A stretch of DNA of 32,000 nt from Polynucleobacter sp. MWH-CaK5 (GCF_018687615.1 NZ_CP061299.1:256020-288019); one strand, 5' to 3'. Shown: positions 1,507 to 30,826, counted from the stretch's first letter. The notes: a model not told the origin generated them from the sequence alone. Numbers and translations: made by a program.

Positions 1507-2577
1507 ATGATTTTGGTGACAGGTGGCGCAGGTTTTATTGGTGGGAATTTTGTCTTGGATTGGTTGGCTAATCCAAGTGCGGAGGGCATCGTTAATCTAG
1601 ATAAATTGACCTATGCAGGCAATCTTGCCACTCTTCAATCTATATCCTCTGATTCGCGCCATGTGTTTATTCAGGGTGATATTGGCGATTATGAGTTGGT
1701 TCTCTCTTTATTAAGGAAGCATCAGATTCGTGCGGTAGTGAATTTTGCAGCAGAGTCACATGTTGATTGCTCAATAGACAGTCCTGTTAATTTTATTCAA
1801 ACAAATGTTATAGGAACTTTTCATTTGCTAGAAGCCGTTAGAGCTTATTGGTCGGATTTACCACAGCGGCACCAAAAAAATTTCCGATTCTTGCATGCCT
1901 CTACTGATGAAGTTTATGGATCTTTGATGTCTGACGAAGCCCCATTTTTAGAGATAACGTCGTATAAACCTAATAATCCTTATTCAGCCTCAAAAGCTGC
2001 GTCGGATCATTTTGTGAGAGCGTGGCACCATACTTACAATTTACCAGTGATAACCACTAATTGCTCTAATAACTATGGACCATATCAGCATACAGAAAAA
2101 CTCATTCCTTGCATGATTCAGAATGCGCTAACTGGACATGCATTGCCTATTTATGGTGATGGGCAACAGATTCGTGATTGGTTGCATGTGAAGGATCATT
2201 GCGTGGCCCTTCGTCAAATATTGGAAAGTGGTGTGGTGGGGCAGACATACAATATTGGCAGCAGGAATGAGAGGAAAAATCTGGAAATTGTGCGTATGAT
2301 TTGTGCCTACCTAGATGAGCTTAAACCCAAGGTAAGTGGTGAAAGTTATGCATCTCAAATTTCTTTTATCAAAGATCGCCCTGGACATGATCAACGTTAT
2401 GCAATAGACCCTAAAAAGTTAGAGGGTCAGTTGGGTTGGAAACCTACTCAAGATTTTGAGGAAAGTTTAAAGTCCACGGTGCAGTGGTATTTGGATCATC
2501 AGGAATGGGTTATTGAAGTTTGCAACTCTACTATTAAAAATAGTCCAAAGAGTTTTGCCAAATCTTTAGGCCAGTAA
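1507..2577 (+). CDS. rfbB: dTDP-glucose 4,6-dehydratase
   Basis: SDR Rossmann motif VTGGAGFIGGNF, STDEVYG, catalytic YSASKAASDH (YxxxK), and the length and C-terminal region typical of RmlB. Followed directly by rmlD and rmlC. Confidence 0.92.
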   Translation: MILVTGGAGFIGGNFVLDWLANPSAEGIVNLDKLTYAGNLATLQSISSDSRHVFIQGDIGDYELVLSLLRKHQIRAVVNFAAESHVDCSIDSPVNFIQTNVIGTFHLLEAVRAYWSDLPQRHQKNFRFLHASTDEVYGSLMSDEAPFLEITSYKPNNPYSASKAASDHFVRAWHHTYNLPVITTNCSNNYGPYQHTEKLIPCMIQNALTGHALPIYGDGQQIRDWLHVKDHCVALRQILESGVVGQTYNIGSRNERKNLEIVRMICAYLDELKPKVSGESYASQISFIKDRPGHDQRYAIDPKKLEGQLGWKPTQDFEESLKSTVQWYLDHQEWVIEVCNSTIKNSPKSFAKSLGQ

Positions 2578-2587
2578 ATATTCAAAT

Positions 2588-3610
2588 ATGGTCGATAACT
2601 TATATCAAGTCTCTGATAAAGCTAAACCAGTATTGGTATTCGGTCGTAATGGTCAAGTTGGGAGGGCGTTGCAAAGATGCTTCTCCAATCTTGATGTACC
2701 TGTTGTTTTTTTGGGGCGTGCAGAATGTGATTTGGCTAATGAAGATGAGATTATTAAGACATTAAATCTGTATCAACCTCAGGTCATCATTAATGCAGCA
2801 GCTTATACAGGGGTTGATAACGCTGAAAGCGAGCGCGAGCTCGCTTTTGCCATTAATGCGAAGGGGCCAGCAGTCATGGCGCATTACATGGTTAATGTGG
2901 CTCATGGTATTTTGGTGCATTACTCTACCGACTATGTCTTTGCTGATACAAAACAAACATCCTACTTAGAAACCGATATTGCAGGGCCTTTAGACCAGCT
3001 GAGTGTTTATGGCCAAAGTAAATTAGCGGGTGAAGAAGCCATTAAAAAAACTTTTAATTTGGCACATGATTCTGGAGATGGTAAATATCAAGAAAATTTT
3101 TCTAGATATTTCATTTTACGAACATCTTGGGTTTATGGTGATGGTGAGAATTTTATTCAGAAGATATTGCGCTTAGCTGGTGAGCAAACTCAACTCAAAA
3201 TTGTGAATGATCAAATTGGAGTGTCTACCTCTGCTCAATGGTTAGCAGAAATGAGTGTGAAAATGATTGATTCAAATATTGAGTCTGGCATTTATCATGT
3301 GGTACCTGATGGTGAAACTTCTTGGTATGAATTGGCAAGATTCGTAATTGAGACAGCTTCGAGGTCTAGTGAGGGCATTGATATTAAGTTAACAAATATC
3401 TTGCCTGTAGCCACCGTAGATTATTCAATGCTGGCCAAGCGACCTCACAACTCTCGGTTAAATAATGTTAAATTCAAAAAAGCATTATCAAAGATAGCTT
3501 TTGTCGAACAATATCCTCAGTGGCAAGAACAGGTAAAGGCCTACGTTAAAGAAAGTGTTACCACCCCTCCACGAGCTGGTGAAGTTGATGGGATTTATGT
3601 ATGCCAATAA
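2588..3610 (+). CDS. rfbD: dTDP-4-dehydrorhamnose reductase (longer than usual, 340 aa)
   Basis: VLVFGRNGQVGRAL nucleotide-binding motif, YGQSKLAGEE (YxxxK), RTSWVYG. Sits between rmlB and rmlC. Its last 10 nt overlap the rmlC start. Confidence 0.82.
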   Translation: MVDNLYQVSDKAKPVLVFGRNGQVGRALQRCFSNLDVPVVFLGRAECDLANEDEIIKTLNLYQPQVIINAAAYTGVDNAESERELAFAINAKGPAVMAHYMVNVAHGILVHYSTDYVFADTKQTSYLETDIAGPLDQLSVYGQSKLAGEEAIKKTFNLAHDSGDGKYQENFSRYFILRTSWVYGDGENFIQKILRLAGEQTQLKIVNDQIGVSTSAQWLAEMSVKMIDSNIESGIYHVVPDGETSWYELARFVIETASRSSEGIDIKLTNILPVATVDYSMLAKRPHNSRLNNVKFKKALSKIAFVEQYPQWQEQVKAYVKESVTTPPRAGEVDGIYVCQ

Positions 3611-4155
3611 CTGTGATATCTACCAAAATACCTGATGTATTGATCATTGAGCCTAAAGTTTATGATGATGATCGTGGTTGGTTTTATGAATCATTTAATG
3701 AAAAAGAATTTTCAGCCGCTGTTGGATGCAACATAACTTTTGTTCAAGATAATCACTCATCTTCCAAGAAGGGTGTTTTGCGGGGTCTTCATTACCAAAC
3801 TCAACAAACGCAGGCTAAGTTGGTGCGTGTCTGCCGTGGAATTGTTTTTTCTGTGGCGGTAGACTTACGCAACTCATCGCCAACATTTGGCCAATGGGTT
3901 GGGGTAGAGCTTTCAGATGAAAATAAAAAACAACTTTGGATACCAGAAGGCTTTGCCCATGGTTTCTTAGCGCTCTCTGATGAAGTAGAGTTCTTGTATA
4001 AGACGACTGATCACTGGCATCCCTCTAGTGAGCAATGCATTGTCTGGAATGATCCAACCTTGGATATTCAGTGGCCTCAGATTGGGATGGAGCTAATTTT
4101 GAATGCTAAGGATCAGCAAGGACTTTCTTGGAGTCAGGCTCCTAAATTCGATTAG
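3601..4155 (+). CDS. rfbC: dTDP-4-dehydrorhamnose 3,5-epimerase
   Basis: Cupin-type RmlC motifs: IPDVLIIEPKVYDDDRGWFYESFN, RGLHYQ, WIPEGFAHGF. 184 aa. Confidence 0.92.
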   Translation: MPITVISTKIPDVLIIEPKVYDDDRGWFYESFNEKEFSAAVGCNITFVQDNHSSSKKGVLRGLHYQTQQTQAKLVRVCRGIVFSVAVDLRNSSPTFGQWVGVELSDENKKQLWIPEGFAHGFLALSDEVEFLYKTTDHWHPSSEQCIVWNDPTLDIQWPQIGMELILNAKDQQGLSWSQAPKFD

Positions 4156-4220: not shown

Positions 4221-5663
4221 ATGTCTAGTAATATCAAACCAGTTATTCTGTGCGGGGGTTCAGGTACTCGTTTGTGGCCACTTTCTCGCGAATCTTTCCC
4301 TAAGCAATTTGTTCCCTTAATTGGTGGTCAAAGTCTTTTGGGTTTAACCGTAGGGCGTGTCAAAAAGCTGGGTTTTCCTGTTTGCATTACAAACGAAGAG
4401 CATCGTTTCTTTGTTCAAGACTTATTAACTTCATCGCTTAATGGTGCTACCGATGCTGGCGCTAATGTTCTTTTGGAGCCAGCGGGTCGTAATACTGCTG
4501 CTGCCATGGCAAGCGCTGCTTTAATGCCAGGTATTGCTAGTTCAGATTTGTTGCTTTTTTTGCCATCAGATCATTTTGTGCCAGATGTTGATGCATTTAT
4601 TTCAACGATGCAGTCCGGAGTTGATGCTGCTCGTTCCGGTTATATCGTTACCTTTGGTGTTCAGCCAACCTTCCCAAGCACGGCTTATGGCTACATTCAG
4701 CAGGGCAGCTGCATCAAAGACTTAAGTGCTAGCCCTAGTGCTAGTGCAGCTTATGCTGTGGAGCGTTTTGTGGAAAAGCCTCAGCTTGATAAAGCACAGG
4801 AGATGTTGTTGTCTGGCAATTATCTTTGGAATGCAGGTATTTTCTTGTGTCAGGCATCTACTTTGCTTGACGCCCTCTCTAAGCATGCACCAGATATTTT
4901 GCAGTCTTGTCAAGCAGCAATGCAGGTTGCCAAAGTTGATGGCTCTTTTGTCCGACCTAACAAAGAAGCTTTTTTAGCTTGTCGCTCAGAGTCTATTGAC
5001 TATGCAGTGATGGAGTATTTTGACAAAGTCGCGGTTATTCCATTTAATGGCGCCTGGAGTGATGTGGGCAGTTGGAATGCTGTTGCTAACCTATCCCCAG
5101 CAGATGAAGCGGGCAATCGTATCAATGGTCAAGGTTTGGCAGTGCAATCAACCAACACCTATATCAATGCACCTCATCGACCTGTGGTGGCATTAGGCAC
5201 ATCGGATTTGGTGATTGTGGATACGCCCGATGCAGTTTTGGTGGCTTCCGCTGACAAGGTGGAGCAGGTGAAAGAAGTGGTGGCTCAGCTTAAAAAAGAC
5301 GGTGCTTCACAAGCGGTGATGCATCGTCGCGTTGCTCGTCCTTGGGGTTGGTACGACTCTATTGATATGGGGGAGCGTTTTCAGGTGAAACGTATTGCTG
5401 TTAAACCAGGCGCCAGCTTGAGTTTACAAATGCATCATCATCGTGCTGAGCATTGGATAGTGGTCAAGGGTACGGCCAAGGTGACTAATGGCGAAGATGT
5501 TTTCTTACTAGAAGAAAATCAGTCGACTTATATTCCGATTGGGGCTAAGCACCGTTTAGAAAATCCAGGTAAAACAGACCTAGAGATGATTGAGGTTCAA
5601 TCGGGGGGGTATCTGGGAGAGGATGACATAGTTCGCTTTGAAGATACCTACGGCCGTAGTTAA
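4221..5663 (+). CDS. manC: Bifunctional mannose-1-phosphate guanylyltransferase / mannose-6-phosphate isomerase (type II PMI-GMP)
   Basis: N-terminal nucleotidyltransferase motif [24 protein letters not shown]-terminal cupin with [13 protein letters not shown] and [14 protein letters not shown] prefer the ATG at 4221 over the track's TTG at 4215. Confidence 0.9.
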
Positions 5664-5688
5664 GAATTGGATTAAAGAAAATATAGAT

Positions 5689-6825
5689 ATGACAAACAAC
5701 AAACAACAAAAAGTAGCTTTGATCACAGGTGTGACCGGCCAAGATGGTTCTTATTTGGCAGAGTTTCTATTGGAGAAAGGTTATGTTGTTCACGGCATTA
5801 AGCGCCGAGCATCTTTATTTAATACCGATCGAGTGGATCATCTCTATCAAGACCCTCATATCGATCATCGCAACTTTGTATTGCACTATGGTGATTTGTC
5901 TGATTCTTCCAATTTGACGCGCATCATTCAGCAGACTCAGCCTGATGAAATCTATAACTTGGGTGCGCAAAGTCACGTAGCAGTGTCTTTTGAATCACCA
6001 GAGTACACAGCTGATGTAGATGGTATGGGAACGCTTCGCATCTTAGAAGCCATTCGTATTTTGGGCCTAGAGAAGAAGACGCGTTTTTATCAAGCATCGA
6101 CCTCTGAGTTATATGGTTTAGTTCAGGAAATTCCTCAAAAAGAAACTACGCCGTTTTATCCACGATCTCCTTATGCGGTAGCAAAGCTCTATGCTTATTG
6201 GATCACGGTCAATTACCGTGAGGCTTATGGCATGTATGCATGTAATGGTATTTTGTTTAATCATGAGAGTCCCCGTCGTGGTGAGACTTTTGTGACTCGA
6301 AAAATCACTCGTGGTTTGGCGAATATTGCCCAAGGTTTAGAGCAATGTTTGTACATGGGCAATATGGATGCGCTTCGTGACTGGGGTCATGCGAAAGATT
6401 ATGTGCGTATGCAGTGGATGATGTTACAACAAGATCAACCTGAAGATTTTGTGATTGCCACGGGTATTCAATATTCTGTCCGAGAGTTTATTGCCAAGAG
6501 CGCAGCTCAGTTTGGGGTCACTCTTAAATTTGAAGGGCAAGGTATTGATGAAAAGGCAGTGGTATCCGCAATTTCTGGTAACGATGCACCAGCTTTGAAA
6601 GTGGGTGATGTGATTGTCAAAGTTGATCCGCGCTATTTCCGTCCTGCCGAAGTAGAAACACTGTTAGGTAATCCTGCTAAGGCTAAGCAAAAACTAGGTT
6701 GGGTGCCAGAGATTACTTTGGATGAGATGGTTCAAGAAATGGTGGCGCATGATTTGGAGCAAGCAAAGCAGCATGCACTACTAAAAGATCACGGCTATGC
6801 TGTTCATGTGGGTAAAGAGAATTAA
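5689..6825 (+). CDS. gmd: GDP-mannose 4,6-dehydratase
   Basis: [48 protein letters not shown]. The ATG at 5689 (MTNNKQQK...) is preferred. The track's TTG at 5638 would overlap the end of manC. Confidence 0.95.
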
Positions 6826-6860
6826 TCATGACTAGCTGATGAACCAGACTAATAAAAATT

Positions 6861-7835
6861 ATGAGTATCAATAAAAACACTAAAATTTATGTGGCTGGCC
6901 ATCGAGGCATGGTGGGCTCAGCCATTGTTCGTCAATTGCAGGCGAAAGGCTTCAATAATTTGGTGATGCGAACTCATGCAGAGTTGGATTTGACCAATCA
7001 ACAAGCTGTTGCCGATTTCTTTCAAAAGGAAAAACCTGAGCAGGTTTATTTGGCGGCAGCAAAAGTGGGTGGTATTCATGCTAATAATACTTACCCAGCG
7101 GAATTCATTTATCAGAATCTAATGATGGAAGCTAATGTGGTTCATCAAGCTTTTCTGGCAGGCGTTAAGAAACTACTCTTTTTGGGTTCAAGTTGTATCT
7201 ATCCAAAGATGGCACCACAGCCAATGGCTGAAGAAGCCCTGTTAACTGGCAAGTTGGAAGCGACTAATGAGCCTTATGCGATTGCTAAGATTGCAGGCAT
7301 TAAATTATGCGAGAGTTATAACCGACAATATGGTCAATCACATGAGATTGATTACAGATCCGTGATGCCAACCAACTTATATGGGCCAGGTGACAATTAT
7401 CATCCTGAAAATAGTCATGTGATTCCCGCTTTGATTAGACGTTTTCATGAGGCTAAAGAAAGTAATATGCCAGAAGTTGTCATTTGGGGTACGGGTACTC
7501 CGAGGCGCGAATTCTTGTATGTGGATGATATGGCTACTGCTTCTGTATACGTGATGGAATTAGATAAAGCCACTTATGATTTGCATACTGAGCCGATGCA
7601 AAGTCACATCAATGTTGGTGTTGGGTCAGATGTGATGATTAAAGAGTTAGCTGAGACTATTGGTAAAGCTATTGGTTATCGAGGAAAACTTTTCTTTGAT
7701 TCAAGTAAACCAGATGGCACTCCTAGGAAGTTGATGAACAGCGCTAAAATTAAGGGAATGGGTTGGCGAGCTGAGGTTGATTTGTATGATGGTTTAGTTA
7801 TTGCTTATCAAGATTTTTTACTTCAACAGACATAA
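6861..7835 (+). CDS. fcl: GDP-L-fucose synthase (GDP-4-keto-6-deoxymannose 3,5-epimerase/4-reductase)
   Basis: [27 protein letters not shown], and REFLYVDD, typical of Fcl/WcaG. Lies immediately downstream of gmd. Confidence 0.92.
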
Positions 7836-7894: not shown

Positions 7895-8995
7895 TTATCT
7901 CAACGTACTCTTGAGTAGTATTTCTCTTAAATTTTCTGCTCCTAACCCGCAAAAATTATCTAATCTTTCGCGCGTTATCATCTTTTCTTGTAAATCAAGT
8001 AATTGTTGCTGGTTTAAAAATTTATTTATTCTACTTGGAAGCCCAAGACTCATTAGTAATTCTTGAGTACTCTTCAAAATTTCATGTGTGTAGCTGTCGA
8101 TAGATAACTTAGTAAGGTTGTAACTAAGTAATGCTGGTAACGTAAAGCTACATGCTAGTCCATGGGGCACACCATAATGAGTTGTTAGTGGGTATGATAT
8201 TGAATGTGCGAGAGCTGTCTTAGTTTGGCTTATTGCTAAACCGCTAAGTAGACTAGCATTTTGTAAATTTTTTCTTGCTTCAATCGACTGAGGTTTGTTT
8301 ACTGCATCTAAAAGATATAGGTTGGACAGGCGCAATGATTCTGTTGCAAATAAACGAGTAATGGGCGTACAGTTTTTATTCCATAACGATTCTATCGCAT
8401 GAGATATTGAATCTAAAGCAGGATAAATTGTGTTTTCTTCGTTTAGTGTTAGTGTTAATTTTGGATCGTATAGGGCGACATCTGAAAACATAAAATCACC
8501 CATTAAAGAATATTTTTTATTCTTTTCGTAATCCCAAATTGTTGCAAAAGGAGTAACCTCTGAACCGCTGCCAGAGGTGGTTGGTATTAAAGTTAGGGGT
8601 AAGCGATTTAACCAAGGCATTTTTATTTTTGATTGAAAGATATCAACCAAAGAAATATTTGTTTGGTTAGGCAGTAAAGCTACAGCTAATATTTTTGCTG
8701 AGTCTAGTACGCTTCCTCCACCTAAACCTATAACGTTATCAATATTTATTTTTTTAAGGTTTGAAATAGCAGCATCTAGGTGTTTAATATCTGGATTAGG
8801 TTTAACGTCATCCCATACTGTAATCTTATTGGGCCTCAGTATCTTCGAGATTGACTGTGCTAAACCTCTCTTAATGAATCCTTGTGATGTAACTAGTAAC
8901 GTATGCTTTGAGTGAAGTGGAGTGGTTAGGCTGTCAATAGAGCTTGATATGATTTGAACGGGAACAAAATGTGACCATGCTGTTTTAAGAAGCAT
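7895..8995 (-). CDS. Iron-containing (group III) alcohol dehydrogenase; candidate phosphonoacetaldehyde reductase (PhpC/FomC/DhpG-like)
   Basis: Fe-ADH glycine motif IGLGGGSVLDSAKILAV and histidine-rich metal region (SHAIESL, ALAHSISYPL, HGVPHGL). Its start overlaps the stop of the upstream phosphonopyruvate decarboxylase by 11 nt. The substrate assignment rests on context only. Confidence 0.7.
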   Translation of the reverse strand: MLLKTAWSHFVPVQIISSSIDSLTTPLHSKHTLLVTSQGFIKRGLAQSISKILRPNKITVWDDVKPNPDIKHLDAAISNLKKINIDNVIGLGGGSVLDSAKILAVALLPNQTNISLVDIFQSKIKMPWLNRLPLTLIPTTSGSGSEVTPFATIWDYEKNKKYSLMGDFMFSDVALYDPKLTLTLNEENTIYPALDSISHAIESLWNKNCTPITRLFATESLRLSNLYLLDAVNKPQSIEARKNLQNASLLSGLAISQTKTALAHSISYPLTTHYGVPHGLACSFTLPALLSYNLTKLSIDSYTHEILKSTQELLMSLGLPSRINKFLNQQQLLDLQEKMITRERLDNFCGLGAENLREILLKSTLR

Positions 8996-10109
8996 TTGCA
9001 GCTTTCATGAAAGCTAATTTGTTTTCTTCCGGGGTATTTTTTGGTCTGCCCAAATCATCTCTGGCACCGTTTTTTATTTTTAATTCCAAAAAACTTGGAC
9101 CATCAGTATTTACTAGTTTTAACCAAGATTTTTTGAGACTTATCAAATCTGTCGCCAATTGGTAGTTTGAGTAACCGCAACCCTTTGATATTTTTTTAAA
9201 ATCAAGGTTCCCTGCCACAGTGGGTTGCCCTCCGACTGACTCATGACAACCATTATTAAATAAAACGTGGATAAATTTATTTGGTTTATAGTTCCCTATC
9301 ACTGGAAGTGAGCCCATGTGCATCAGGAGTGAGCCATCGCCATCTAGACATATGACACGTTTTTTGGGTTGGCCAATCGCAACCCCTAGGGCTATAGAAG
9401 ATGTGTGCCCCATTCCGCCGACTGTTAAAAAATCACACTGGGCTTCATTTCTCTTGGATCTTAGTTCATATAACTCTCTAGATGTTTTTCCTGTGGTCGA
9501 AATAATTAGGTCATTTGAGGCGCATAAATTTAATAGCTCTGATAGAGCTTCTTCTCTTATTAAATTGGATAACCCAGCAGATTTTTTGGTGGATTTATAT
9601 TTTGTAAATGTGTCTTTACATATGACTAATGCTACTGGACCATTGCGAGACTGCATGGTTTTAAATGTGGTCTCAAGAGTTTCTAAGATATTGGTGTTGG
9701 GATTAATTATCAAATATGGAATCTCAAGAGTGTCAAGTTGATGTAGTGTAATTCTGCCTTGTTTAATGTGTTGTGGTTCATCTGCTATTTCAGGTTCTCC
9801 CCGCCAACCAATAATGAGAAGAATCGGTATTTTATACACTTCAATATCGGCAAGTGATGTGAATGGATTAATTATGTTACCTATACCAGAGTTTTGCATG
9901 TACACGGCGGCCGTTTTACCAGTCGATAAATGGTAACCCATAGCTAGCGCCAAAGCATTTCCTTCATTTGCGGCAATTAGATGTTTTTGTTTTTCTACGT
10001 GATCGTCTACATAAGAGCAGAAACTTGAGAGTAGTGAATCTGGCACTCCAGCATAAAAGTTGACGCCATGCTTCTCTAAGTGATTAAAAAAGTCTTCTGG
10101 TGCGATCAT
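8985..10109 (-). CDS. ppd: Phosphonopyruvate decarboxylase (ThDP-dependent)
   Basis: N-terminus FFNHLEKHGVNFYAGVPDSLLSSF and ThDP-binding motif CLDGDGSLLMHMGSL...NNGCHESVGGQ, as in Ppd/AepY/Fom2. Its start codon shares 1 nt with the pepM stop (TAATG). Confidence 0.85.
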   Translation of the reverse strand: MIAPEDFFNHLEKHGVNFYAGVPDSLLSSFCSYVDDHVEKQKHLIAANEGNALALAMGYHLSTGKTAAVYMQNSGIGNIINPFTSLADIEVYKIPILLIIGWRGEPEIADEPQHIKQGRITLHQLDTLEIPYLIINPNTNILETLETTFKTMQSRNGPVALVICKDTFTKYKSTKKSAGLSNLIREEALSELLNLCASNDLIISTTGKTSRELYELRSKRNEAQCDFLTVGGMGHTSSIALGVAIGQPKKRVICLDGDGSLLMHMGSLPVIGNYKPNKFIHVLFNNGCHESVGGQPTVAGNLDFKKISKGCGYSNYQLATDLISLKKSWLKLVNTDGPSFLELKIKNGARDDLGRPKNTPEENKLAFMKAANAS

Positions 10110-11410
10110 TATTTTGTACCTGGAATTAATTCAAGAATATCCTTTATGGGTAAAAGGTGTGCGTCAGCTTCTGCAGATCTTGCATTTGTTAAAATTAATT
10201 TTGCGGTATTAAGCATGGCCGGGTAGGCGCTGCGCAGTAAGTGATTTGCATAAATAACAATATTTGCACCATGAGAGGTTAGTTCGTCTTCTGTAACCAT
10301 GTTGTAGCTAGATGGAACAACAACTAAGGTTTTACGATTTGGCAATTGGTTATAGAGGTTGCAAAATTTAAAAATTTCATCGGGAGATGTTTTACGGCTG
10401 TGAATCATGATGCCATCTGCCCCAGCATCAAGGTAGGCCTTGGCTCGTATAAGAGCATCATCCATGCCCTTATCTAAAATCAAGCTTTCTATTCGGGCAA
10501 TAATCATGAATTCGTCTGTTGCCTGAGATTGTTTCCCTACGCGAATTTTTTCGCAAAAATTAGAGATTTCATCCTGCGTTTGAATTACATCGTTTCCAAA
10601 AAGTGAATTTTTTTTGAGACCAGTTTTATCTTCAATTATGATTGCCGAAATTCCTAATCGTTCCAGTGTGCGCACAGTAAAAATAAAATGCTCTGCTTGG
10701 CCGCCTGTGTCGCCATCGTAGATAATTGGTTTGGTTGTAACTTCTAAGACTTCGTTTAGAGTGCTTATGCGTGCGCTAAAATCCACAGCTTCTATATCTG
10801 GTTTACCTTTAGCCGTTGAGTCTGTTAGACTGCTGCCCCACATGCCATCAAATTCACGTATAGTTCCATCGGGCAATGTAATCGTTGTATTTTCGATAAT
10901 TAACCCAGTTAGCGCATTGTGTATATCAAGGAAACGTACTATTGGTTTAACTTGTAGGAGGCGTCTTAGGCGGTTGCGACGAATATCGGGAGTAGTCCCC
11001 ATTTCCTTTAGTGTTTTTTGAATTGCGGTTGACGAGATTCCATCTGTATATGGCACCTCAATTAATTCCCCACCCCATTCTGCCAGAGTGTCAATAACTC
11101 GTTGACGTGTTTCACGCTGAATACCTTCTTTCCAATCGTCACCGTGAACAACAAAATCTGGTTTGAGAAGGCGTAAATTTGCAGAATAATCTAGCGTGGA
11201 TTGAGTGATGACGTGACTAACACCTTTGATATTTTCAATGACCATCTTTCGTTGTTCAAATTTCATGAAGGGAAGGCGTTTATAGCTCGTAATTGCTGAG
11301 TCTGTTAGTAAGCCTACGGTTACTTCACCATATTGAGCAGCCACTTTAAGAATGTTTAGGTGGCCTGGATGAATAAGGTCTGCGCTCATGCCAACGTATA
11401 CTTTTTTCAT
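10109..11410 (-). CDS. pepM: Bifunctional cytidylyltransferase-phosphoenolpyruvate mutase fusion (Fom1/AepX-type architecture)
   Basis: The N-terminal ~130 aa carry cytidylyltransferase-family motifs ([15 protein letters not shown] with HxGH; [10 protein letters not shown] resembling RTxGISTT). The remainder is an isocitrate-lyase/PEP-mutase fold with the PepM-diagnostic EDKxxxxxNS motif ([16 protein letters not shown]). Confidence 0.88.
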
Positions 11411-11659
11411 TGAGTTTTAATATTGAAGTTAATTTTTTGGTTTTAGGTGTGGGTGTGGGTGATAATTTCTATTATTTGGATAATATAAATATTTTTTCAT
11501 TTTAATGGTAATGCAATTTCACTTAATTGTTGTGATGCATAATGAGCCTTTAATTGCGTATTGCTAGAGTTGGTTTGTCATTGGATATATACGCAAATCA
11601 GCAAGCCATTTTCGCACGATTTTTTTGATAGGGCACGATAATTTACTGTTGGTTAAAAA
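11411..11659. promoter_or_regulatory. 249-bp AT-rich divergent intergenic region between pepM (-) and the ABC exporter operon (+); presumed bidirectional promoter/control region
   Basis: It is the only sizeable non-coding gap in the centre of the locus and is flanked by divergent start codons. I could not pin down well-spaced -35/-10 hexamers. The best weak candidate is TTGCTA at 11561-11566 followed about 18 nt later by ATATAT. Confidence 0.4.
11446..11461. repeat. Short tandem hexamer repeat (GGTGTG)x2 plus GGTG
   Basis: GGTGTGGGTGTGGGTG read directly. It lies 36-51 nt upstream of the pepM start codon, where it reads CACCCACACCCACACC on the pepM strand. It is a G/C-rich island in otherwise AT-rich spacer. 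Confidence 0.6.
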
Positions 11660-13465
11660 ATGCTGAATTTCAATAGAATTATAAAGTTACTAACTCTCAA
11701 GGAAAAGCTACAGGCTTTATTGTTACTTATCATGATTATTATCATGGCTTTTCTCGATGTTATAGGTGTTGCATCAATCATGCCATTCATGGCTGTACTA
11801 GCTAACCCAAAGATTATTGATTCAAACCAACTATTACAATTACTTTATAAATCCCTGGGGTATGAAACTGCTAGTGGTTTTTTATTTTTTCTGGGAGCGG
11901 CTGTTTTTTTATTAATGGTGGTGTCTTTGGTTTTTAAGATGTTTACTAATTATGCGTTGATTCGTTTTTCTTTAATGCGCGAACACACATTAGCCATTAG
12001 ATTAGTTAAGTTATATCTTAATCAGAGCTACGATTGGTTTTTATACAGAAATAGTGCCAATTTGGGAAATACAATTCTTTCGGAGCTCAATCAAGTTATT
12101 GGTGGCGCCTTTATTCCTTTGATGCAATTAATTTCAGGGCTAGCAGTTATCGCTGCTATGTTGTTATTTTTGATATTTATTGACCCCGTGCTTACTTTGA
12201 TGATATTTGCATTTATGGGGGGTGTTTACATCATTTTATATTGGCTGATATCTTCGTATTTGGCAAGAATTGGTGAAAGAAGGCTATTTGCTAATCAGCA
12301 GAGATTTGGAATACTAAGCGAGGCATTTGGTGGTATTAAAGATATTAAAGTTGCTAACTTGGAGATCGAGTATCTAAAGAGATTTACTGAGCCCTCAAAA
12401 ATTTATGCGAAGTATCAGTCAATTTCAGCACTTATTGGTCAATTGCCTAGATATTTTTTGGAGGTAATTGCCTTTGGAGGCATTTTATTAATAATACTTT
12501 TTCTTTTAAAAGAAACTGGGGATGTTGGTCAGGTGCTGCCGATTGCTACGTTATATGCTTTGGCTGGCTACAGGTTTATGCCGGCGCTTCAACAAATTTA
12601 TGCCGCCAGCACTAGCCTCAAATTTACAAGTGCTTCATTGGATGCTTTGTATAAAGATTTCCTTGAGGTCTCAAAAGTTGAAAGTTCAATTTTGGCGCCC
12701 AACTCTATATCTAGGTTAGTGTTTAAAACTAAAATTTCAATAAATAATGTGTCGTATCGCTACCCCCAAGCAAACAATTACGCTCTGTGTGATATGACAT
12801 TTGATATTTATGCTAATACAACAGTTGGTCTCGTTGGGGTTAGTGGTAGCGGTAAGTCAACTTCAGTGGATCTCATTATGGGTCTTTTGGAGCCTAGTTC
12901 TGGGTCTGTCTTAGTTGATGATGTAACACTTTCTAATCAAAATAAAGCATCATGGCAAAAATTGATCGGGTATGTTCCTCAGCAGATTTTCTTGGCTGAT
13001 GACAGTATTGCATCAAATATTGCATTTGGGGTAAGGTCTGACCTAATTGATATTGATCTTTTGGCTCAAGCAGCAAAAATGGCAAATCTACATGATTTTA
13101 TTATCAATGAGTTGCCTAATGGTTATGATACGTTTGTGGGTGAGAGGGGCGTTCGATTGTCGGGTGGTCAAAGGCAAAGAATAGGAATAGCAAGAGCACT
13201 TTATCGAAAGCCGAGTATTTTAATTTTGGATGAGGCAACTAGTGCGTTAGATAATTTAACTGAGCAAGCAGTCATGGATGCTGTTAATCAATTAAGTGGG
13301 CGATTAACTTTAATTTTAATTGCGCATCGGTTGTCGACCGTAGAGAAGTGTGATCAATTATTTGTGTTTGATCATGGAAAGATTGTTGCTCAAGGAAAAT
13401 TTCACGACTTAGTTGAGCAAAGTCAGTTATTCCGATCCATGGTCAATCGTCACGTGGAGATTTAA
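11660..13465 (+). CDS. Fused TMD-NBD ABC exporter (MsbA/PglK-like half transporter)
   Basis: N-terminal hydrophobic half with about 6 predicted TM segments. C-terminal NBD with Walker A GVSGSGKST, signature LSGGQRQR, Walker B ILILDEATSALD and H-loop IAHRL. Confidence 0.85.
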   Translation: MLNFNRIIKLLTLKEKLQALLLLIMIIIMAFLDVIGVASIMPFMAVLANPKIIDSNQLLQLLYKSLGYETASGFLFFLGAAVFLLMVVSLVFKMFTNYALIRFSLMREHTLAIRLVKLYLNQSYDWFLYRNSANLGNTILSELNQVIGGAFIPLMQLISGLAVIAAMLLFLIFIDPVLTLMIFAFMGGVYIILYWLISSYLARIGERRLFANQQRFGILSEAFGGIKDIKVANLEIEYLKRFTEPSKIYAKYQSISALIGQLPRYFLEVIAFGGILLIILFLLKETGDVGQVLPIATLYALAGYRFMPALQQIYAASTSLKFTSASLDALYKDFLEVSKVESSILAPNSISRLVFKTKISINNVSYRYPQANNYALCDMTFDIYANTTVGLVGVSGSGKSTSVDLIMGLLEPSSGSVLVDDVTLSNQNKASWQKLIGYVPQQIFLADDSIASNIAFGVRSDLIDIDLLAQAAKMANLHDFIINELPNGYDTFVGERGVRLSGGQRQRIGIARALYRKPSILILDEATSALDNLTEQAVMDAVNQLSGRLTLILIAHRLSTVEKCDQLFVFDHGKIVAQGKFHDLVEQSQLFRSMVNRHVEI

Positions 13466-13486
13466 ATCATTAAAAGCGAAGATGAC

Positions 13487-14281
13487 GTGATCAATTCAAG
13501 CGATATACCTATGTTGCGTATGAAGCAATTGCGTATGCTTGATGTTTTTGTTGATATTTGCAATAAGAACCATTTAAATTATTGGCTCGACTTTGGTACG
13601 TTATTAGGCGCTATAAGACATCAAGGTTTTATTCCTTGGGATGATGATGTAGACGTTTCTATGCCATTGAGTGACTATTATAGATTCATCGAGATTGCAG
13701 AAAAATATCTACCCGATGACATTTTCCTTCAAACACCACACACAGACCCAGGATTTAAGCAAGCATTCATTAAGCTACGTGATCATAATTCAACATTTAT
13801 CGAGTTTCATGAGACGGGGCTAATGCCCTACCATCAAGGTATTTTTATAGATATATTTCCATCATATGAATACTCCAAAATTCCCACGTTGCTGAGAAAA
13901 ATAATGCAACGCACTACGGTTTTTTCTCGTTACTTCTTATGCGTCACAAGAAAGAAGGTTTTTTTAAATTGGCCTCTATATCAATTTTGTAAATTATTTT
14001 GGTTTTTTGCTTCGTTATTTAAAAAGGTGGCATTTGGTCAAATTCCTGAAGATAATGGCTATATGTATGCTAGTCCGTTGACTAATTTGTATCCATTGGG
14101 CCAGTGTAATTTTGAAGGTAAAACATATAACTGCCCGGCTCTGCCTCATGAGCATTTGTCCGTTTTATATGGAAAGCATTACATGACTCCACCCAATGTC
14201 AGCAATCGAGTTCCTCATGCAAAGTTAATTCTACCTAATGAACCTTGCCCTCAGTCTAGATTAAAATTGAGCGTTAATTGA
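13487..14281 (+). CDS. licD: LicD-family phospho(no)transferase
   Basis: LicD hallmark block NYWLDFGTLLGAIRHQGFIPWDDDVDVSMP. The start is uncertain: GTG at 13487 or ATG at 13511 (MLRMKQLRMLDVF...). Confidence 0.8.
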   Translation: MINSSDIPMLRMKQLRMLDVFVDICNKNHLNYWLDFGTLLGAIRHQGFIPWDDDVDVSMPLSDYYRFIEIAEKYLPDDIFLQTPHTDPGFKQAFIKLRDHNSTFIEFHETGLMPYHQGIFIDIFPSYEYSKIPTLLRKIMQRTTVFSRYFLCVTRKKVFLNWPLYQFCKLFWFFASLFKKVAFGQIPEDNGYMYASPLTNLYPLGQCNFEGKTYNCPALPHEHLSVLYGKHYMTPPNVSNRVPHAKLILPNEPCPQSRLKLSVN

Positions 14282-15264
14282 GTGATAAAGTGAATCATTT
14301 TGCACCGGTAGCTGTATTTGTATACAACAGACTTCAAAATACAATTGAAGTTATTGAGGCTTTAAGAAAAAATCGTTTGGCCATGCAAACAGAGGTTTAT
14401 TTTTTTTCAGATGGCCCAAGACATAAAAAAGATGAATCTTCAGTTCAAGAAGTCAGAAATTATTTAAGATCGGTGAATGGTTTTAAAAAAATTCATCTAG
14501 TGGAGCGCGAACAAAATTACTATATTGAAAAAAACATAATTTTGGGTGTCACCTATGTTATTAATAAGCATGGGTCCATCATTGTTTTGGAAGATGATGG
14601 CGTGACTTCAGAAGACTTTTTAGAGTTTATGAATGGAGCCCTAGATTTTTATAAGACTTTTAAAAAGGTCATGCATGTTGCCACCTTTACCTTCATAAAT
14701 ATGCCAAATGGTTTTAATAAAACATTTTTTTGGCGCTACACTGAAAACACTGGCGGTGGTTGGGCAACTTGGAAAGATAGATGGGCTAAGTTTGAGTATT
14801 TTCAAACAAAAGAACAAGCATTGAGTTCAATGTCTGAGACTGAAAAGGACTGGGTTGAGATGTCTGGTGAATATAAGTGCTTAGATCTACTAAGGTTACA
14901 GCCTATACCTTGGGATTTGTGTTGGTATATTTCAGTTGCAAAAAATCAGGGCTTGGCAGTGCAAGCCCCCTGGGCCTTGACTGTTAATAATGGCCTTTAT
15001 AACGGCACCCATTTTAATTTCTTTAATAGATTATTAGGGCGCAGCCCATTTGAAACTAATTTATCAGCACCACGAAAAATCATTTTTAGTGAGGATGTGG
15101 TCGAAGATAAGTATGCTCTTGGCCAACTTATCAAGTTTTATAAAGAAATGCAGAGTAATAAAAGGGCTAAGGCAATACATTTTCTGCTGAGAATATTAAT
15201 CTATTTAAAAGTTACGAAAATAGTTAAGTTCATCTTGAAAATTTATAGAGGATCAGTCAGTTGA
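14278..15264 (+). CDS. GT-A fold glycosyltransferase, GNT-I (GT13)-like, EDD motif; paralog of 18010-18939
   Basis: VAVFVYNR..., YFFSDGPR, IVLEDDGV and GGGWATWKDRW align with the corresponding blocks of the 18010 ORF. TTG start overlaps the licD stop (TTGA). The family assignment is from memory of similar HlpA-like/GNT-I-like annotations. Confidence 0.5.
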   Translation: MSDKVNHFAPVAVFVYNRLQNTIEVIEALRKNRLAMQTEVYFFSDGPRHKKDESSVQEVRNYLRSVNGFKKIHLVEREQNYYIEKNIILGVTYVINKHGSIIVLEDDGVTSEDFLEFMNGALDFYKTFKKVMHVATFTFINMPNGFNKTFFWRYTENTGGGWATWKDRWAKFEYFQTKEQALSSMSETEKDWVEMSGEYKCLDLLRLQPIPWDLCWYISVAKNQGLAVQAPWALTVNNGLYNGTHFNFFNRLLGRSPFETNLSAPRKIIFSEDVVEDKYALGQLIKFYKEMQSNKRAKAIHFLLRILIYLKVTKIVKFILKIYRGSVS

Positions 15265-15986
15265 GATCATTCATACATGAATTAATTGACAGATATGATC
15301 CATCTAGAATATTTAGGCGATGGTTGACACGTAATTTCTTGAAGTCTAAATATCCATATCTCGTTTTAAATAAGCCCCATCCTATTAGTGAATGGTGTGG
15401 TTTTGACCGTGGCACACCAATGGATCGCTACTATATTGAATACTTTCTCGAGAGTCAGCAACAGTTGGTAAGGGGAGTATGTCTTGAGGTTTTAAATAAC
15501 ACTTATACGACTTATTATGGTGGTGATAATGTGCTAAGTTCTGATGTTTTAGATATTGATGCGTCTAATAGAAATGCAACGATAGTGGGTGATATTAGAC
15601 AGCTTGATGCTGTTGATGATGAAACGTTTGATTGCATCATACTTACCCAAGTTCTTCAATTTATCGATAATTTAGATGCGTCGATAAGTGAGTGCAATAG
15701 AGTTTTAAAGACAGGTGGTGTTTTGTTGGTTACTTTGCCCGCAATTGGTAGGGTTGATTCTATTTCTGGAGTCCATGGAGATTATTGGCGGTTTACTACT
15801 GCTTCTGCAAAGTATATATTTGAGAAAAAATTTTCTAGAGATAAAGTTTTAATTAAATCATTTGGCAATGTTCGTTCCGCAATGTTGTTTTACGCCGGTA
15901 TGGCTATTGAAGATATTTCAAAGAGTGTTTTAGATGTTGTGGATGAGAATTTCCCAATGATTATTGCTGTAAAGGCTATAAAGTGA
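15261..15986 (+). CDS. Class I SAM-dependent methyltransferase
   Basis: VCLEVLNNTYTTYYGG...DVLDID...ATIVGDIRQLD...FDCIILTQVLQFIDNL...VLKTGGVLLVTLP matches the layout of Methyltransf_11/23-like O-antigen-cluster methyltransferases. Motif I is degenerate. TTG start overlaps the upstream stop (TTGA). Confidence 0.62.
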   Translation: MRSFIHELIDRYDPSRIFRRWLTRNFLKSKYPYLVLNKPHPISEWCGFDRGTPMDRYYIEYFLESQQQLVRGVCLEVLNNTYTTYYGGDNVLSSDVLDIDASNRNATIVGDIRQLDAVDDETFDCIILTQVLQFIDNLDASISECNRVLKTGGVLLVTLPAIGRVDSISGVHGDYWRFTTASAKYIFEKKFSRDKVLIKSFGNVRSAMLFYAGMAIEDISKSVLDVVDENFPMIIAVKAIK

Positions 15987-16831
15987 AATTTTTATTGAAA
16001 GAATTATTTAAAAAAGTCCCATTTTTAATTTTTTTTTATAGACTTTTAAATAGGACAGCATATTTATTATTAGAATTGTGGAGGCTAATTGAATCTTGGT
16101 TGATAAAAAACACCCAGCCTTCTGCGATCATACTTTTATATCATCGTGTCGCTGAGGTTAAATCTGATCCTGCGAAGCTAGCAGTCACACCGATTTGTTT
16201 CGAACAGCACATAATTTTTTTGAAAAAAAATTATGAGGTCATTTCCTTAGAAGAGCTTATCGAAAGGTGTCAAAGTAACTCCTTAGTTGGCAAAGAGGCA
16301 GTTATTACTTTTGATGATGGTTACCAAGATAATTTAAATGTTGCTTTGCCTCTCCTTGAGAAGTACCAGGTACCTGCAACTATTTTTGTCACAACTGGAA
16401 TGATAGGAGAGGTTCCGAATTTTCAGTGGAGTGCTGATTGCTTATCTGAAGATCAGCCAAGATATTTAACGAGTGATGAACTTGTTTTTTTAGCTAATCA
16501 TCCTTTAATCAGCATAGGTGGCCATACCAAAAATCATGCCAGATTGTCCGACCTTAATTTTATTGATCAATACGATGAGATTTCCAGTAACAAAAAACAT
16601 CTTGAAGAAATCATTGGCAAAGATGTAAACCTCTTTGCATATCCATATGGCAGATTTTTTGATTATGATCACAATAGTGTGAGAATAGCGCGACAATTAA
16701 ATTTCATATGTTCTGCCGAAAATATGCCGGGTTTAATTACGTCTAAGTCTGACTTGTTTAGATTGCCTAGATTCAATGTCAGAAATTACACGATTGATGA
16801 ACTCTCTAGGCTGGTTTTTCATGAAAGATAA
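15983..16831 (+). CDS. Polysaccharide deacetylase (NodB homology / CE4 family) with N-terminal hydrophobic segment
   Basis: NodB motif 1 VITFDDGYQDN, motif GGHTKNHARL, and FAYPYG. GTG start overlaps the upstream stop (GTGA). Confidence 0.75.
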   Translation: MKFLLKELFKKVPFLIFFYRLLNRTAYLLLELWRLIESWLIKNTQPSAIILLYHRVAEVKSDPAKLAVTPICFEQHIIFLKKNYEVISLEELIERCQSNSLVGKEAVITFDDGYQDNLNVALPLLEKYQVPATIFVTTGMIGEVPNFQWSADCLSEDQPRYLTSDELVFLANHPLISIGGHTKNHARLSDLNFIDQYDEISSNKKHLEEIIGKDVNLFAYPYGRFFDYDHNSVRIARQLNFICSAENMPGLITSKSDLFRLPRFNVRNYTIDELSRLVFHER

Positions 16832-18005
16832 ATCTGGCATGATAAAACTATCAATAATAATTCCTTGCTTCAATAGTCAAAAAACATTGCTTGAGGCAGT
16901 TCAATCATGTTACATGCAAGGTTTTGATTTGCAAGATTTTGAGGTTGTTATTGTAGATGATGCATCCAGTGATGCAACAAAAGAAGTTATTGAGCAGCTA
17001 CTAGATCAGTACTCAAATGTAAAAGCTTATTTTCATGATCAAAATATGGGTGGAGGGGCGGCAAGAAATACTGCGGTCTCAAGGTCAGTGGCGCCGGTAA
17101 TATTTTGTTTGGATAGTGATGATATTTTACCTTCGGGAATGTTAAGAAAGATGTATGAGCATCTTCTGTCGAATAAATTGGACGGAATTTTATTTTCTGA
17201 GACAAGGTTCTTTGAAAAAAATATTAATGAAACTGAGGTGGTTTCCAATAAAGGAGTTGGTTCATTAATAACTTTTTGGGATTTATATGAAACGGGTTCT
17301 GGATTTTTAACCCAGGTTAATTTTATGTATACATCAAAGGCATTTGGTGTTCTAGGTGGTTATCCAGTTAGCCACGGTTTTGACACCCAAGGTTTTGGGT
17401 TTAATTTTTTAGCGCAGAATCTTAGAGTTGCAGTTTGTCCTGAAACTTATTATTTTCACAGACGACAGCAAGCAGGAAGTAAATCATATTATGAGCGTGA
17501 ATATGAGAAGGGGTTGCTTTCAATTAATACTTACCTTTGCATTGAAAAGGCGCTCAACAGATTTGATGAAAACTTGATTTCTTTGATATTAAATTATGAT
17601 ATTTTTAAAAAAAATACACATGGAACAAATGCTAATCTTCATGATGCGATTGCTTATAGTTACAGGAATCGGGGCTTCGCTATAGCTAAAAATAACGATA
17701 AACGTAATGTTAGAGAGATTTTTATTCAACTATGCAATTTTTTGGATGGCGAAGATTATTTGTCAGCCAATGAGAGCTATGTAAAGTGCTTGAGATTGCT
17801 GGGTGTTGTTACGCCAATCATGCTCTTTATGCAATTAAGAATTGCCTATGGCCTAATGGGTGTCGGACTCCAAAACAGAGATAAATTTGCAATTAAATAT
17901 TTGCTAGAGTTGAATGTTTTTCAGAAGAGAAGGATGAAGAGATTGCCGTCTTTTTTGATTAAGTTTAAGAATCTTTTAGTGCAATTTATTCCCAAAAATA
18001 TATAA
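16821..18005 (+). CDS. Family 2 glycosyltransferase with an extra C-terminal region of about 150 aa
   Basis: LSIIIPCFNSQKTL, VVIVDDASSDAT, DxD motif CLDSDDIL. I prefer the ATG at 16821 (or 16839) over the track's 16776, which would overlap the deacetylase by 56 nt. Confidence 0.8.
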   Translation: MKDKSGMIKLSIIIPCFNSQKTLLEAVQSCYMQGFDLQDFEVVIVDDASSDATKEVIEQLLDQYSNVKAYFHDQNMGGGAARNTAVSRSVAPVIFCLDSDDILPSGMLRKMYEHLLSNKLDGILFSETRFFEKNINETEVVSNKGVGSLITFWDLYETGSGFLTQVNFMYTSKAFGVLGGYPVSHGFDTQGFGFNFLAQNLRVAVCPETYYFHRRQQAGSKSYYEREYEKGLLSINTYLCIEKALNRFDENLISLILNYDIFKKNTHGTNANLHDAIAYSYRNRGFAIAKNNDKRNVREIFIQLCNFLDGEDYLSANESYVKCLRLLGVVTPIMLFMQLRIAYGLMGVGLQNRDKFAIKYLLELNVFQKRRMKRLPSFLIKFKNLLVQFIPKNI

Positions 18006-18009
18006 ATAT

Positions 18010-20998: not shown

Positions 20999-21002
20999 AG
21001 AT

Positions 21003-30799: not shown

Positions 30800-30826
30800 T
30801 TTAACTCGCCTGATGATACTGAGCTC

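Follow-up and report, generated by a model that had tools for sequence, protein, structure and literature searches.

What does a set of phosphonate biosynthesis genes do inside a surface-glycan locus? The question is raised by a stretch of 32,000 nucleotides (nt) from the freshwater bacterium Polynucleobacter sp. MWH-CaK5 (GCF_018687615.1, NZ_CP061299.1:256020-288019), which we call the window and in which positions are counted from the first letter. Region 7895-11410 contains three minus-strand open reading frames (ORFs), which were found exactly where a first-pass annotation of the window had placed them. That annotation had proposed that the trio makes the cytidine monophosphate (CMP) conjugate of 2-hydroxyethylphosphonate (HEP) as a donor for glycan decoration. 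The results of the analysis presented here suggested that this is likely: the reading that we favor, taken as a whole, is that a HEP cassette yields CMP-HEP, which is then used for LicD-type decoration of a lipopolysaccharide (LPS)/O-antigen glycan. The three genes and the two domains of the first gene product are listed here.

10109-11410, minus strand: bifunctional, Fom1-like fusion of a cytidylyltransferase (CyTase) and a phosphoenolpyruvate (PEP) mutase (PepM), 433 amino acids (aa); PF01467 and PF13714, TIGR02320
11003-11401, minus strand: CyTase domain of the fusion, approximately residues 4-136; PF01467, match to PDB 5x3d
10115-10969, minus strand: PepM domain of the fusion, approximately residues 148-432; PF13714, TIGR02320
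8985-10109, minus strand: thiamine diphosphate (ThDP)-dependent phosphonopyruvate decarboxylase (Ppd), 374 aa; TIGR03297, PF02776, PF02775
7895-8995, minus strand: PhpC-type (group III Fe/Zn) alcohol dehydrogenase (ADH), predicted phosphonoacetaldehyde reductase, 366 aa; PF00465, PF25137

The stop codon of the fusion gene and the start codon of ppd share 1 nt (TAATG at 10111-10107), and ppd and the ADH gene overlap by 11 nt (ATGCTTCTTAA, at 8995-8985). Both junctions were read directly in the sequence, as were the HPGH, GISST, EDKxxxxxNS, and GGGSVLDSAK motifs in the translated proteins, so the translational coupling and the motifs that had been annotated are both present. The trio is real and intact, and its family matches reflect strong homology, with chance excluded.

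In the case of the fusion protein, a Pfam profile search matched PF01467 at residues 9-131 (E = 1e-13) and PF13714 at residues 148-406 (E = 2e-52). The protein scored 397.9 bits on the TIGR02320 PEP mutase equivalog model, which has a cut-off of 319.55, and it fell far under the cut-offs of the phosphonopyruvate hydrolase and methylisocitrate lyase models. The PepM domain carried DGDTGG, with the Mg-binding aspartates of the DxD site, at residues 232-237 and the EDKxxxxxNS motif at residues 260-269. Moreover, a set of 79 full-length fusions defined 81 positions with conservation of 97% or more, of which the domain retained 79, including the DxD Mg site and EDKxxxxxNS. Profile scores and catalytic residues were thus both in agreement with the annotated PEP mutase, and the protein was 100% identical to an NCBI 'phosphoenolpyruvate mutase' of Polynucleobacter sp. 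MWH-CaK5. The CyTase domain, which carried HPGH at residues 14-17 and GISST at residues 124-128, was 67% identical over 133 aa (residues 4-136, E = 1e-59) to the crystallized CyTase domain of Fom1 (PDB 5x3d), an experimentally characterized HEP cytidylyltransferase. More than 100 metagenomic relatives of the fusion were found at 77-81% identity.

The second gene product scored 467.3 bits on TIGR03297 (cut-off, 312.5) and also matched PF02776 and PF02775, which, together with the coupling of its gene to pepM, bore out its assignment as a ThDP-dependent phosphonopyruvate decarboxylase. The third gene product matched PF00465 and PF25137 in the Pfam profile search. Its best NCBIfam match was TIGR03405, a phosphonate-associated Fe-ADH model that now carries the name of Burkholderia PsrA; the score of 316.2 bits beat every other ADH subfamily by more than 140 bits and missed the equivalog cut-off of 423.7. 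The protein was 100% identical to the NCBI 'phosphonoacetaldehyde reductase' of Polynucleobacter sp. MWH-CaK5. In a 2026 study of PhpC enzymes (PMC13576164), the metal ligands of the P. fungorum PhpC were Asp191, His195, His260, and His274, its HEP clamp was formed by Lys157, Thr256, Tyr264, and Arg349, and Tyr264 was a strictly conserved residue of PhpC whose place is taken by Phe in sulfoacetaldehyde reductases. With a constant offset of +4 in place of a direct alignment to PhpC, the equivalents in the window ADH were D195, H199, H264, and H278 for the metal and K161, T260, Y268, and R344 for the clamp, with Y268 as the PhpC-distinguishing Tyr and the R344 equivalence tentative. Six of these residues (K161, T260, Y268, D195, H264, and H278) were 100% conserved in 160 homologues. 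Therefore, of the earlier assignment to the PhpC/FomC/DhpG type of Fe-ADH, the family and the HEP-clamp residues stood, and equivalog status on TIGR03405 did not.

A catabolic role for the ADH (HEP to phosphonoacetaldehyde) was considered and rejected on two grounds: its gene shows translational coupling to pepM-ppd, and phnX, phnA, and phnY were all missing. As a separate observation, the ADH showed only 45-58% identity across its listed metagenomic relatives, in contrast to 77-81% for the co-transcribed fusion. Several ADH and fusion matches appeared to share contigs, and the contigs that were inspected paired an ADH of at most 57% identity with a fusion. Conservation of the two proteins was thus very uneven, which points to uneven constraint.

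From these gene identities and residues, we infer the following enzyme activities. The PepM domain would convert PEP to phosphonopyruvate, and Ppd would decarboxylate phosphonopyruvate to phosphonoacetaldehyde, drawing the unfavorable PepM equilibrium forward. The PhpC-type ADH would reduce phosphonoacetaldehyde to HEP, and the Fom1-type CyTase domain of the PepM protein would convert HEP and cytidine triphosphate to CMP-HEP. Judged from sequence, the trio very probably synthesizes both HEP and CMP-HEP.

Genes for other branches of phosphonate metabolism were sought in the window. A tblastn search with four confirmed seeds of 2-aminoethylphosphonate (AEP) transaminase (AEPT) gave no match within the window (best E = 0.38), in line with the first-pass annotation, and a tblastn search with one PF12804 PntC seed also gave no match there. 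The Pfam scan covered every non-nested window ORF of at least 80 aa, many of which were also scanned with NCBIfam. Among these ORFs, we found no radical-SAM protein, no DUF402 protein (FomD), no epoxidase/HppE, no cupin other than ManC, and no second cytidylyltransferase. No window ORF was an MpnS/HEPD candidate by profile scan, a result obtained without a direct search with an MpnS reference, and no MpnS/HEPD step appears to be encoded locally. The ORFs that matched no family were a Wzy-like protein with nine transmembrane segments, two GT-A-like paralogues, and a charged 346-aa protein. Because radical-SAM, epoxidase, and DUF402 genes were not found in the window, the locus is not a fosfomycin cluster. 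The missing Fom3-like and HppE-like genes had been noted in the annotation, and its preference for glycan decoration over an antibiotic agreed with the LPS/O-antigen surroundings and the lack of fosfomycin tailoring genes in the window.

The window was then compared with 80 loci that encode relatives of the fusion (one genome per species, fusion identity 53-69%), with Bacteroidota, Clostridia, Cloacimonadota, DPANN archaea, SAR86, and Pelagibacteraceae among the taxa. The CyTase-PepM fusion (CyPepM) was accompanied by Ppd and ADH in 42 of the 80 loci, most of them in the gene order of the window and with two Ppd-ADH fusions counted. Those two, of about 750 aa and located downstream of CyTase-PepM, were in Gastranaerophilales (L030 11266-13518 and L033 5063-7321). 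Fourteen loci had CyPepM-Ppd-AEPT, with the AEPT assigned through TIGR03301, which was above cut-off in the five sequences sampled, and the other loci were truncated or different. The median identity of the CyTase domain to Fom1 was 63% in ADH loci versus 51% in AEPT loci (Mann-Whitney p = 8e-6, a value that overstates the support because the loci are phylogenetically non-independent). The identity of the PepM domain to that of the window did not differ between the two classes (p = 0.38).

A strict search found no single position that fully separated ADH-type from AEPT-type fusions; the difference was a multi-residue pattern, and the AEPT side split into two distinct classes. A 28-position CyTase signature (SDHGHTDKRPRQLDYHGDWQTRWYTSST), derived from conservation in the 80 related loci and not from Fom1 ligand contacts, was identical (28/28) in the window, Fom1, and most ADH-type loci, and AEPT-linked fusions had 4-11 mismatches overall. 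In the Clostridial AEPT class (L037, L040, L042, L044, L046, and L051), 4-6 positions were altered, with K44 changed to F or W, Y75 to Q, T101 to L, I, or Y, and S127 to I, and HxGH was intact. These changes could be a specificity switch toward the ammonium group of AEP. In the Bacteroidales/Fibrobacter/Smithella class, HxGH was broken (H17 changed to L or Y), with 8-11 changes in all. The broken-HxGH fusions, AEPT-linked or of the Fibrobacter type, were those of L045, L048, L056, L057, L060, and L064 to L066, as well as L058, L059, L062, and L063, and the fused CyTase domain in these loci may be catalytically dead. All of them but L058 and L059 had a separate PF12804 PntC-like gene. Such a gene stood beside the core in 14 of 14 AEPT loci, compared to 12 of 42 ADH loci; several of the PF12804 genes in ADH loci adjoined rmlB/C/D-like genes and were not individually identified as rmlA.

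The pattern had exceptions. Four ADH-linked loci in Lachnospiraceae and other Bacillota (L067, L068, L073, and L074) had a divergent CyTase domain, 41-48% identical to Fom1 and changed in the ISST region, together with a CyPepM-ADH-Ppd gene order and longer fusions (564-675 aa). In addition, four or five loci (L015, L016, L020, L028, and L036) had the full Fom1 signature and no ADH within 10 kb, and these are unexplained. The simplest reading is that the Fom1-type domain would be the HEP-activating enzyme of ADH-type cassettes, with the window in that class. The HEP branch ending in CMP-HEP, as first annotated, was thus supported by the 67% identity to Fom1, a 28/28 signature that tracks the ADH branch, the ADH clamp residues, and the lack of an AEPT in the window; the annotated fusion of a Fom1-like CyTase domain to PepM likewise drew support from its PF01467 match, that identity, and the signature.

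If CMP-HEP is made, which enzyme would attach it, and to what? Annotation of the ORFs with Pfam and NCBIfam showed that the window is an LPS/O-antigen-type locus. Its left part has rmlB/D/C-like genes, manC-gmd-fcl, the cassette, an ATP-binding cassette (ABC) exporter gene of the PglK/MsbA type, and a licD gene. These are followed by a glycosyltransferase (GT)-like gene, an S-adenosylmethionine (SAM) methyltransferase gene, a polysaccharide deacetylase gene, several GT2/GT4 genes, and a GT11 fucosyltransferase gene. Further on are genes for the Wzy-like protein, a small PglC-like phosphoglycosyltransferase, and a PglF-like dehydratase, and then the opposite strand carries GT4, WaaL/Wzy_C ligase, and GT25 genes. 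The features closest to the transfer question are these.

13487-14281, plus strand: LicD-family phosphotransferase, candidate transferase, 264 aa; PF04991, E = 1e-36
11660-13465, plus strand: PglK/MsbA-type fused ABC exporter, probable lipid-linked glycan flippase, 601 aa; PF00664 and PF00005
7818-11665, no strand: span of the cassette, inserted or swapped in comparison with L087, from blastn collinearity

The LicD protein carries DDDVD, a DxD-type acidic motif, and was the sole cytidine diphosphate (CDP)-alcohol-type phosphotransferase in the ORF scans of the window. The first-pass annotation had not included this candidate transferase. Of the 42 ADH-type loci, 18 encoded either LicD or a TagF-like Glyphos_transf enzyme, and in many cases this gene immediately followed that of the ADH. 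LicD itself was in five of the 42, straight after the ADH in L001 and nearby in L013, L030, L031, and L050. From this setting we infer both that LicD acts here and which glycan is the acceptor. CMP-HEP would be a cytoplasmic, CDP-alcohol-like donor that esterifies a sugar hydroxyl on an undecaprenyl-linked LPS/O-antigen unit, with transfer most likely by the neighboring LicD-family enzyme. The decorated unit would then be flipped by the PglK-like ABC exporter, polymerized by the Wzy-like protein, and ligated by the WaaL-like protein. For the ABC exporter, PglK was the best NCBIfam match (360 bits, cut-off missed), and the gene adjoins licD in L087 and L089 as well. Taken by itself, the proposal that LicD uses CMP-HEP to place the HEP-phosphonyl group on the glycan has roughly an even chance of being correct.

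The genes that follow the ADH in other HEP cassettes varied and included TagF-like, sulfatase-family, and sulfotransferase-like genes and unknowns. Specifically, the gene after the ADH in L012 (10017-11648), L084 (13545-14525), L026 (13567-14574), and L081 (8405-9628) encoded a protein of the sulfatase/alkaline-phosphatase family, one resembling sulfotransferases, or a 407-aa protein that Pfam did not match, and it is possible that these are alternative phosphonyl transferases.

The comparison with L087, a metagenomic contig (JACCDN011191810.1), indicated how the cassette is placed in the locus. By blastn, L087 was collinear with window positions 5205-7817 and 11666-21812 at approximately 80% nucleotide identity, and its LicD, which was 91% identical, was the closest LicD relative. 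What lies between fcl and the ABC gene is 3.85 kb with the inverted trio in the window and 0.7 kb (2609-3318) with a gene for a 219-aa TehB-like methyltransferase in L087. Because L087 has a methyltransferase gene where the window has the trio, the cassette is a plug-in, and it would have been acquired by the LPS/O-antigen locus as an accessory. Searches of the cassette borders gave no direct or inverted repeats beyond chance and no mobile-element scar, and no trace of the methyltransferase was found in the window. L089 (Oxalobacter sp.) and L090 had the ABC/LicD/GT-like/methyltransferase/deacetylase block without phosphonate genes, and the closest cassette relatives were in unrelated glycan loci with other genes downstream. 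The cassette is therefore a mobile three-gene module without its own transferase. This accessory nature, that is, an insertion with no dedicated transferase, had been missed in the first-pass annotation.

Several points weigh against LicD-type decoration with CMP-HEP. In addition to the missed TIGR03405 cut-off, the phylogenetic dependence of the loci, and the derivation of the signature from conservation, all given above, our searches for AEPT, MpnS/HEPD, and other transferases covered the 32-kb window of a 1.7-Mb genome. Furthermore, no transferase is specific to the cassette, and the test for co-inheritance of LicD and the cassette failed: in L087, L089, and L090, the LicD block is present and PepM, Ppd, and ADH are all missing, and the part kept without the cassette runs from the ABC, LicD, GT-like, methyltransferase, and deacetylase genes into those that follow. 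LicD therefore uses another donor in these loci. On these grounds, CMP-HEP might be made while LicD keeps its ancestral donor and an unlinked enzyme or one of the GT-A-like paralogues (14278-15264 and 18010-18939) carries out the transfer, perhaps onto a lipid, a protein, a different glycan, or some other acceptor. The placement of the closest LicD relatives in collinear loci without the cassette speaks for this alternative, as do the many different genes after related HEP cassettes, which mean that there is no fixed partner. However, the window has no second CDP-alcohol-type transferase, nor does it have a further cytidylyltransferase to supply LicD. LicD is directly after the ADH in one ADH-type locus and close to it in four others, and the cassette-less L087 has the GT-like paralogues too. 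We regard this alternative as unlikely. A more specific form of the preferred reading, in which the resident LicD had a different ancestral donor and also accepts CMP-HEP after a transferase-less plug-in replaced a small methyltransferase gene, is put forward tentatively. As a corollary of that tentative form, the Fom1-type signature would predict HEP versus AEP specificity across PF01467-PepM fusions, many AEP-type fusions having a dead CyTase domain.

Other alternatives concern the product rather than the transferase. HEP could be only an intermediate, from which an unlinked tailoring enzyme such as MpnS or HEPD makes methylphosphonate, hydroxymethylphosphonate, or a small-molecule phosphonate. 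Methylphosphonate is made from HEP in Nitrosopumilus and SAR11 clusters (PMC8931226, PMC9381506), and the searches covered only the 32-kb window. Even so, this outcome is improbable: the window has no cupin/dioxygenase candidate, radical-SAM protein, or epoxidase, mpnS and hepD are far rarer than phpC in surveys (PMC9381506), and the conserved Fom1-type CyTase domain argues that HEP itself is the activated species. Less probable again is delivery of AEP through a transaminase encoded elsewhere, with the ADH interconverting HEP and phosphonoacetaldehyde in a side reaction or for salvage. PhpC homologues are reversible and also occur in catabolic clusters (PMC13576164), and PF01467-PepM fusions exist in AEP loci, such as those of Bacteroides (PMC8942020) and some of the loci analyzed here. 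Against this stand the lack of an AEPT in the window, the translational coupling of the ADH gene to ppd, a CyTase domain with the Fom1/ADH-type signature and neither AEPT-type one, and the lack of a PntC-like gene, which all 14 AEPT loci have. The least probable alternative by our estimate is that the CyTase domain activates a phosphate ester for LicD (glycerol-3-phosphate, ribitol-5-phosphate, or phosphocholine) that is unrelated to the phosphonate. PF01467 takes in TagD-like glycerol-3-phosphate cytidylyltransferases, and TIGR01518 matched the domain weakly; the 47.6 bits were far under the cut-off of 165, and similarity to TagD-type enzymes reached only about E = 1e-8 (9e-9 for TagD), as opposed to 67% identity to Fom1. 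Moreover, the CyTase domain is fused to PepM in thousands of relatives, and the cassette-less relatives of the locus retain LicD without it.

Beyond the cassette and LicD, three further features of the window deserve mention.

11411-11659, no strand: AT-rich divergent intergenic region between the cassette and the ABC gene, 249 bp, presumably with promoters
15261-15986: SAM methyltransferase
14278-15264 and 18010-18939: uncharacterized GT-A-like paralogues, 25% identity, E = 1e-14

Promoter-like hits in 11411-11659 were no commoner than in shuffled sequence, so no site was assigned there, and the terminator scan likewise gave nothing beyond chance. A phosphonate O-methyltransferase role for the SAM methyltransferase was considered and is unlikely because the gene is conserved in the cassette-less L087 and L089. 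The GT-A-like paralogues share a DGPR...EDD...WATWK pattern, are essentially without Pfam or NCBIfam matches, and are both conserved in L087. Positions 1507-4155 hold the rmlB-, rmlD-, and rmlC-like genes, and no rmlA (glucose-1-phosphate thymidylyltransferase) gene was present in the window. At the left edge of the glycan locus, 333-1373 encodes the highly charged, coiled-coil-like 346-aa protein, which is preceded by a short frame that ends near 315 and looks helix-turn-helix-like; the 346-aa protein may be of mobile-element or phage origin. In the approximately 1.2 kb downstream of galE (30800-32000), no ORF exceeds 58 aa and there is neither an Rfam nor a tRNA match; the Rfam and tRNA scans of the whole window were empty.

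A large part of the phosphonate phosphorus in aquatic high-molecular-weight organic matter consists of polysaccharide esters of HEP and methylphosphonate, which fuel aerobic methane production. To our knowledge, experimentally defined producers are few, and no glycan-transfer enzyme has been defined in this way. If the tentative form of the preferred reading is true, in which the resident LicD also accepts CMP-HEP, one insertion would turn an ordinary LPS glycan into a phosphonoglycan, and Polynucleobacter, an abundant freshwater genus, would contribute polysaccharide-bound HEP to the dissolved organic phosphorus of lakes. The strain is culturable and of freshwater origin, it has a minimal HEP cassette, and a near-isogenic cassette-less comparator locus is available; this clean cassette swap makes the transferase question experimentally tractable. 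The locus is also suited to asking whether Fom1-type domains make CMP-HEP outside Streptomyces, which enzyme attaches HEP, and what the modification does for the cell, such as resistance to phage, grazers, or phosphatases.

The first-pass annotation had described this wiring as little explored, and published surveys contradict that description at the genomic level. PF01467-Ppm fusions make up 23.6% of non-redundant Ppm proteins, with Fom1 as the characterized example (PMC6697681). PhpC/HEP neighborhoods, including those of Helicobacter cinaedi and Campylobacter jejuni, make up 8.5% of ppm neighborhoods, and the isolated products known for such neighborhoods come only from Nitrosopumilus and Stackebrandtia (PMC8942020). 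In ocean metagenomes, the abundance of phpC is 64-76% of that of pepM (PMC9381506), and HEP and methylphosphonate esters make up as much as about 20% of the phosphorus in marine dissolved organic matter of high molecular weight (PMC9381506, PMC13576164). HEP esters on polysaccharides are known from actinomycetes and from marine dissolved organic matter of high molecular weight (cited in PMC13576164, PMC9381506, and PMC8942020). Our literature search found no published demonstration that CMP-HEP is transferred to a glycan of a Gram-negative organism. With 42 of the 80 related loci, the pepM-ppd-phpC architecture is common, and it has been surveyed in print; the window adds no new enzyme family or pathway logic. 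The additions made here are modest: the split between the Fom1-type and AEPT-type signatures, the apparently decayed CyTase domains of many AEP loci, and the clean cassette-swap comparison.

Among known systems, the Fom1/Fom2/FomC pathway of Streptomyces fosfomycin biosynthesis has the same predicted first steps (PEP to phosphonopyruvate, phosphonoacetaldehyde, HEP, and CMP-HEP) and the same fusion of an N-terminal PF01467 domain to a C-terminal PepM domain, with the CyTase identity and signature match described above. Unlike that pathway, the window is without Fom3 (a B12 radical-SAM enzyme), FomD, and Fom4/HppE and lies in a betaproteobacterial LPS/O-antigen setting, and its CMP-HEP is a predicted glycan donor, whereas theirs is a transient antibiotic intermediate. 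The Pnt pathway for AEP, which has a PF12804 PntC and a LicD-like protein (Rice et al. 2019, PMC6697681), and the B. fragilis AepX/Y/Z system share with the window the predicted nucleotidyl activation of a phosphonate followed by LicD-type transfer to a cell-surface glycan. Their branch enzyme is an AEP transaminase and that of the window is an ADH, and activation is by a LicC-like PF12804 PntC in the Pnt pathway and would be by a Fom1-type PF01467 domain in the window; the AEPT-type PF01467 fusions differ from the window in their divergent or degenerate active-site signatures. The LicD/TagF CDP-alcohol phosphotransferases for phosphocholine, glycerol-phosphate, and ribitol-phosphate are similar to the window LicD in its PF04991 match and DxD-type motif and in the analogous predicted chemistry, in which CMP leaves and a P-O-sugar ester is formed. 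In contrast to these enzymes, the window LicD would take a phosphonate, CMP-HEP, as its donor, and its closest relatives are in loci without phosphonate genes. The nearest counterparts are the pepM-aepY(ppd)-phpC 'HEP branch' neighborhoods of Helicobacter cinaedi, Campylobacter jejuni, Stackebrandtia nassauensis (which makes a HEP exopolysaccharide), and Nitrosopumilus (Li & Horsman 2022, PMC8942020; Lockwood et al. 2022, PMC9381506), which have the same three-gene core and are often in surface-glycan loci. The window differs from the Nitrosopumilus and SAR11 clusters in having no MpnS candidate, and it differs from these neighborhoods in its freshwater Polynucleobacter host and in a cassette that is visibly inserted into a locus that exists without it.

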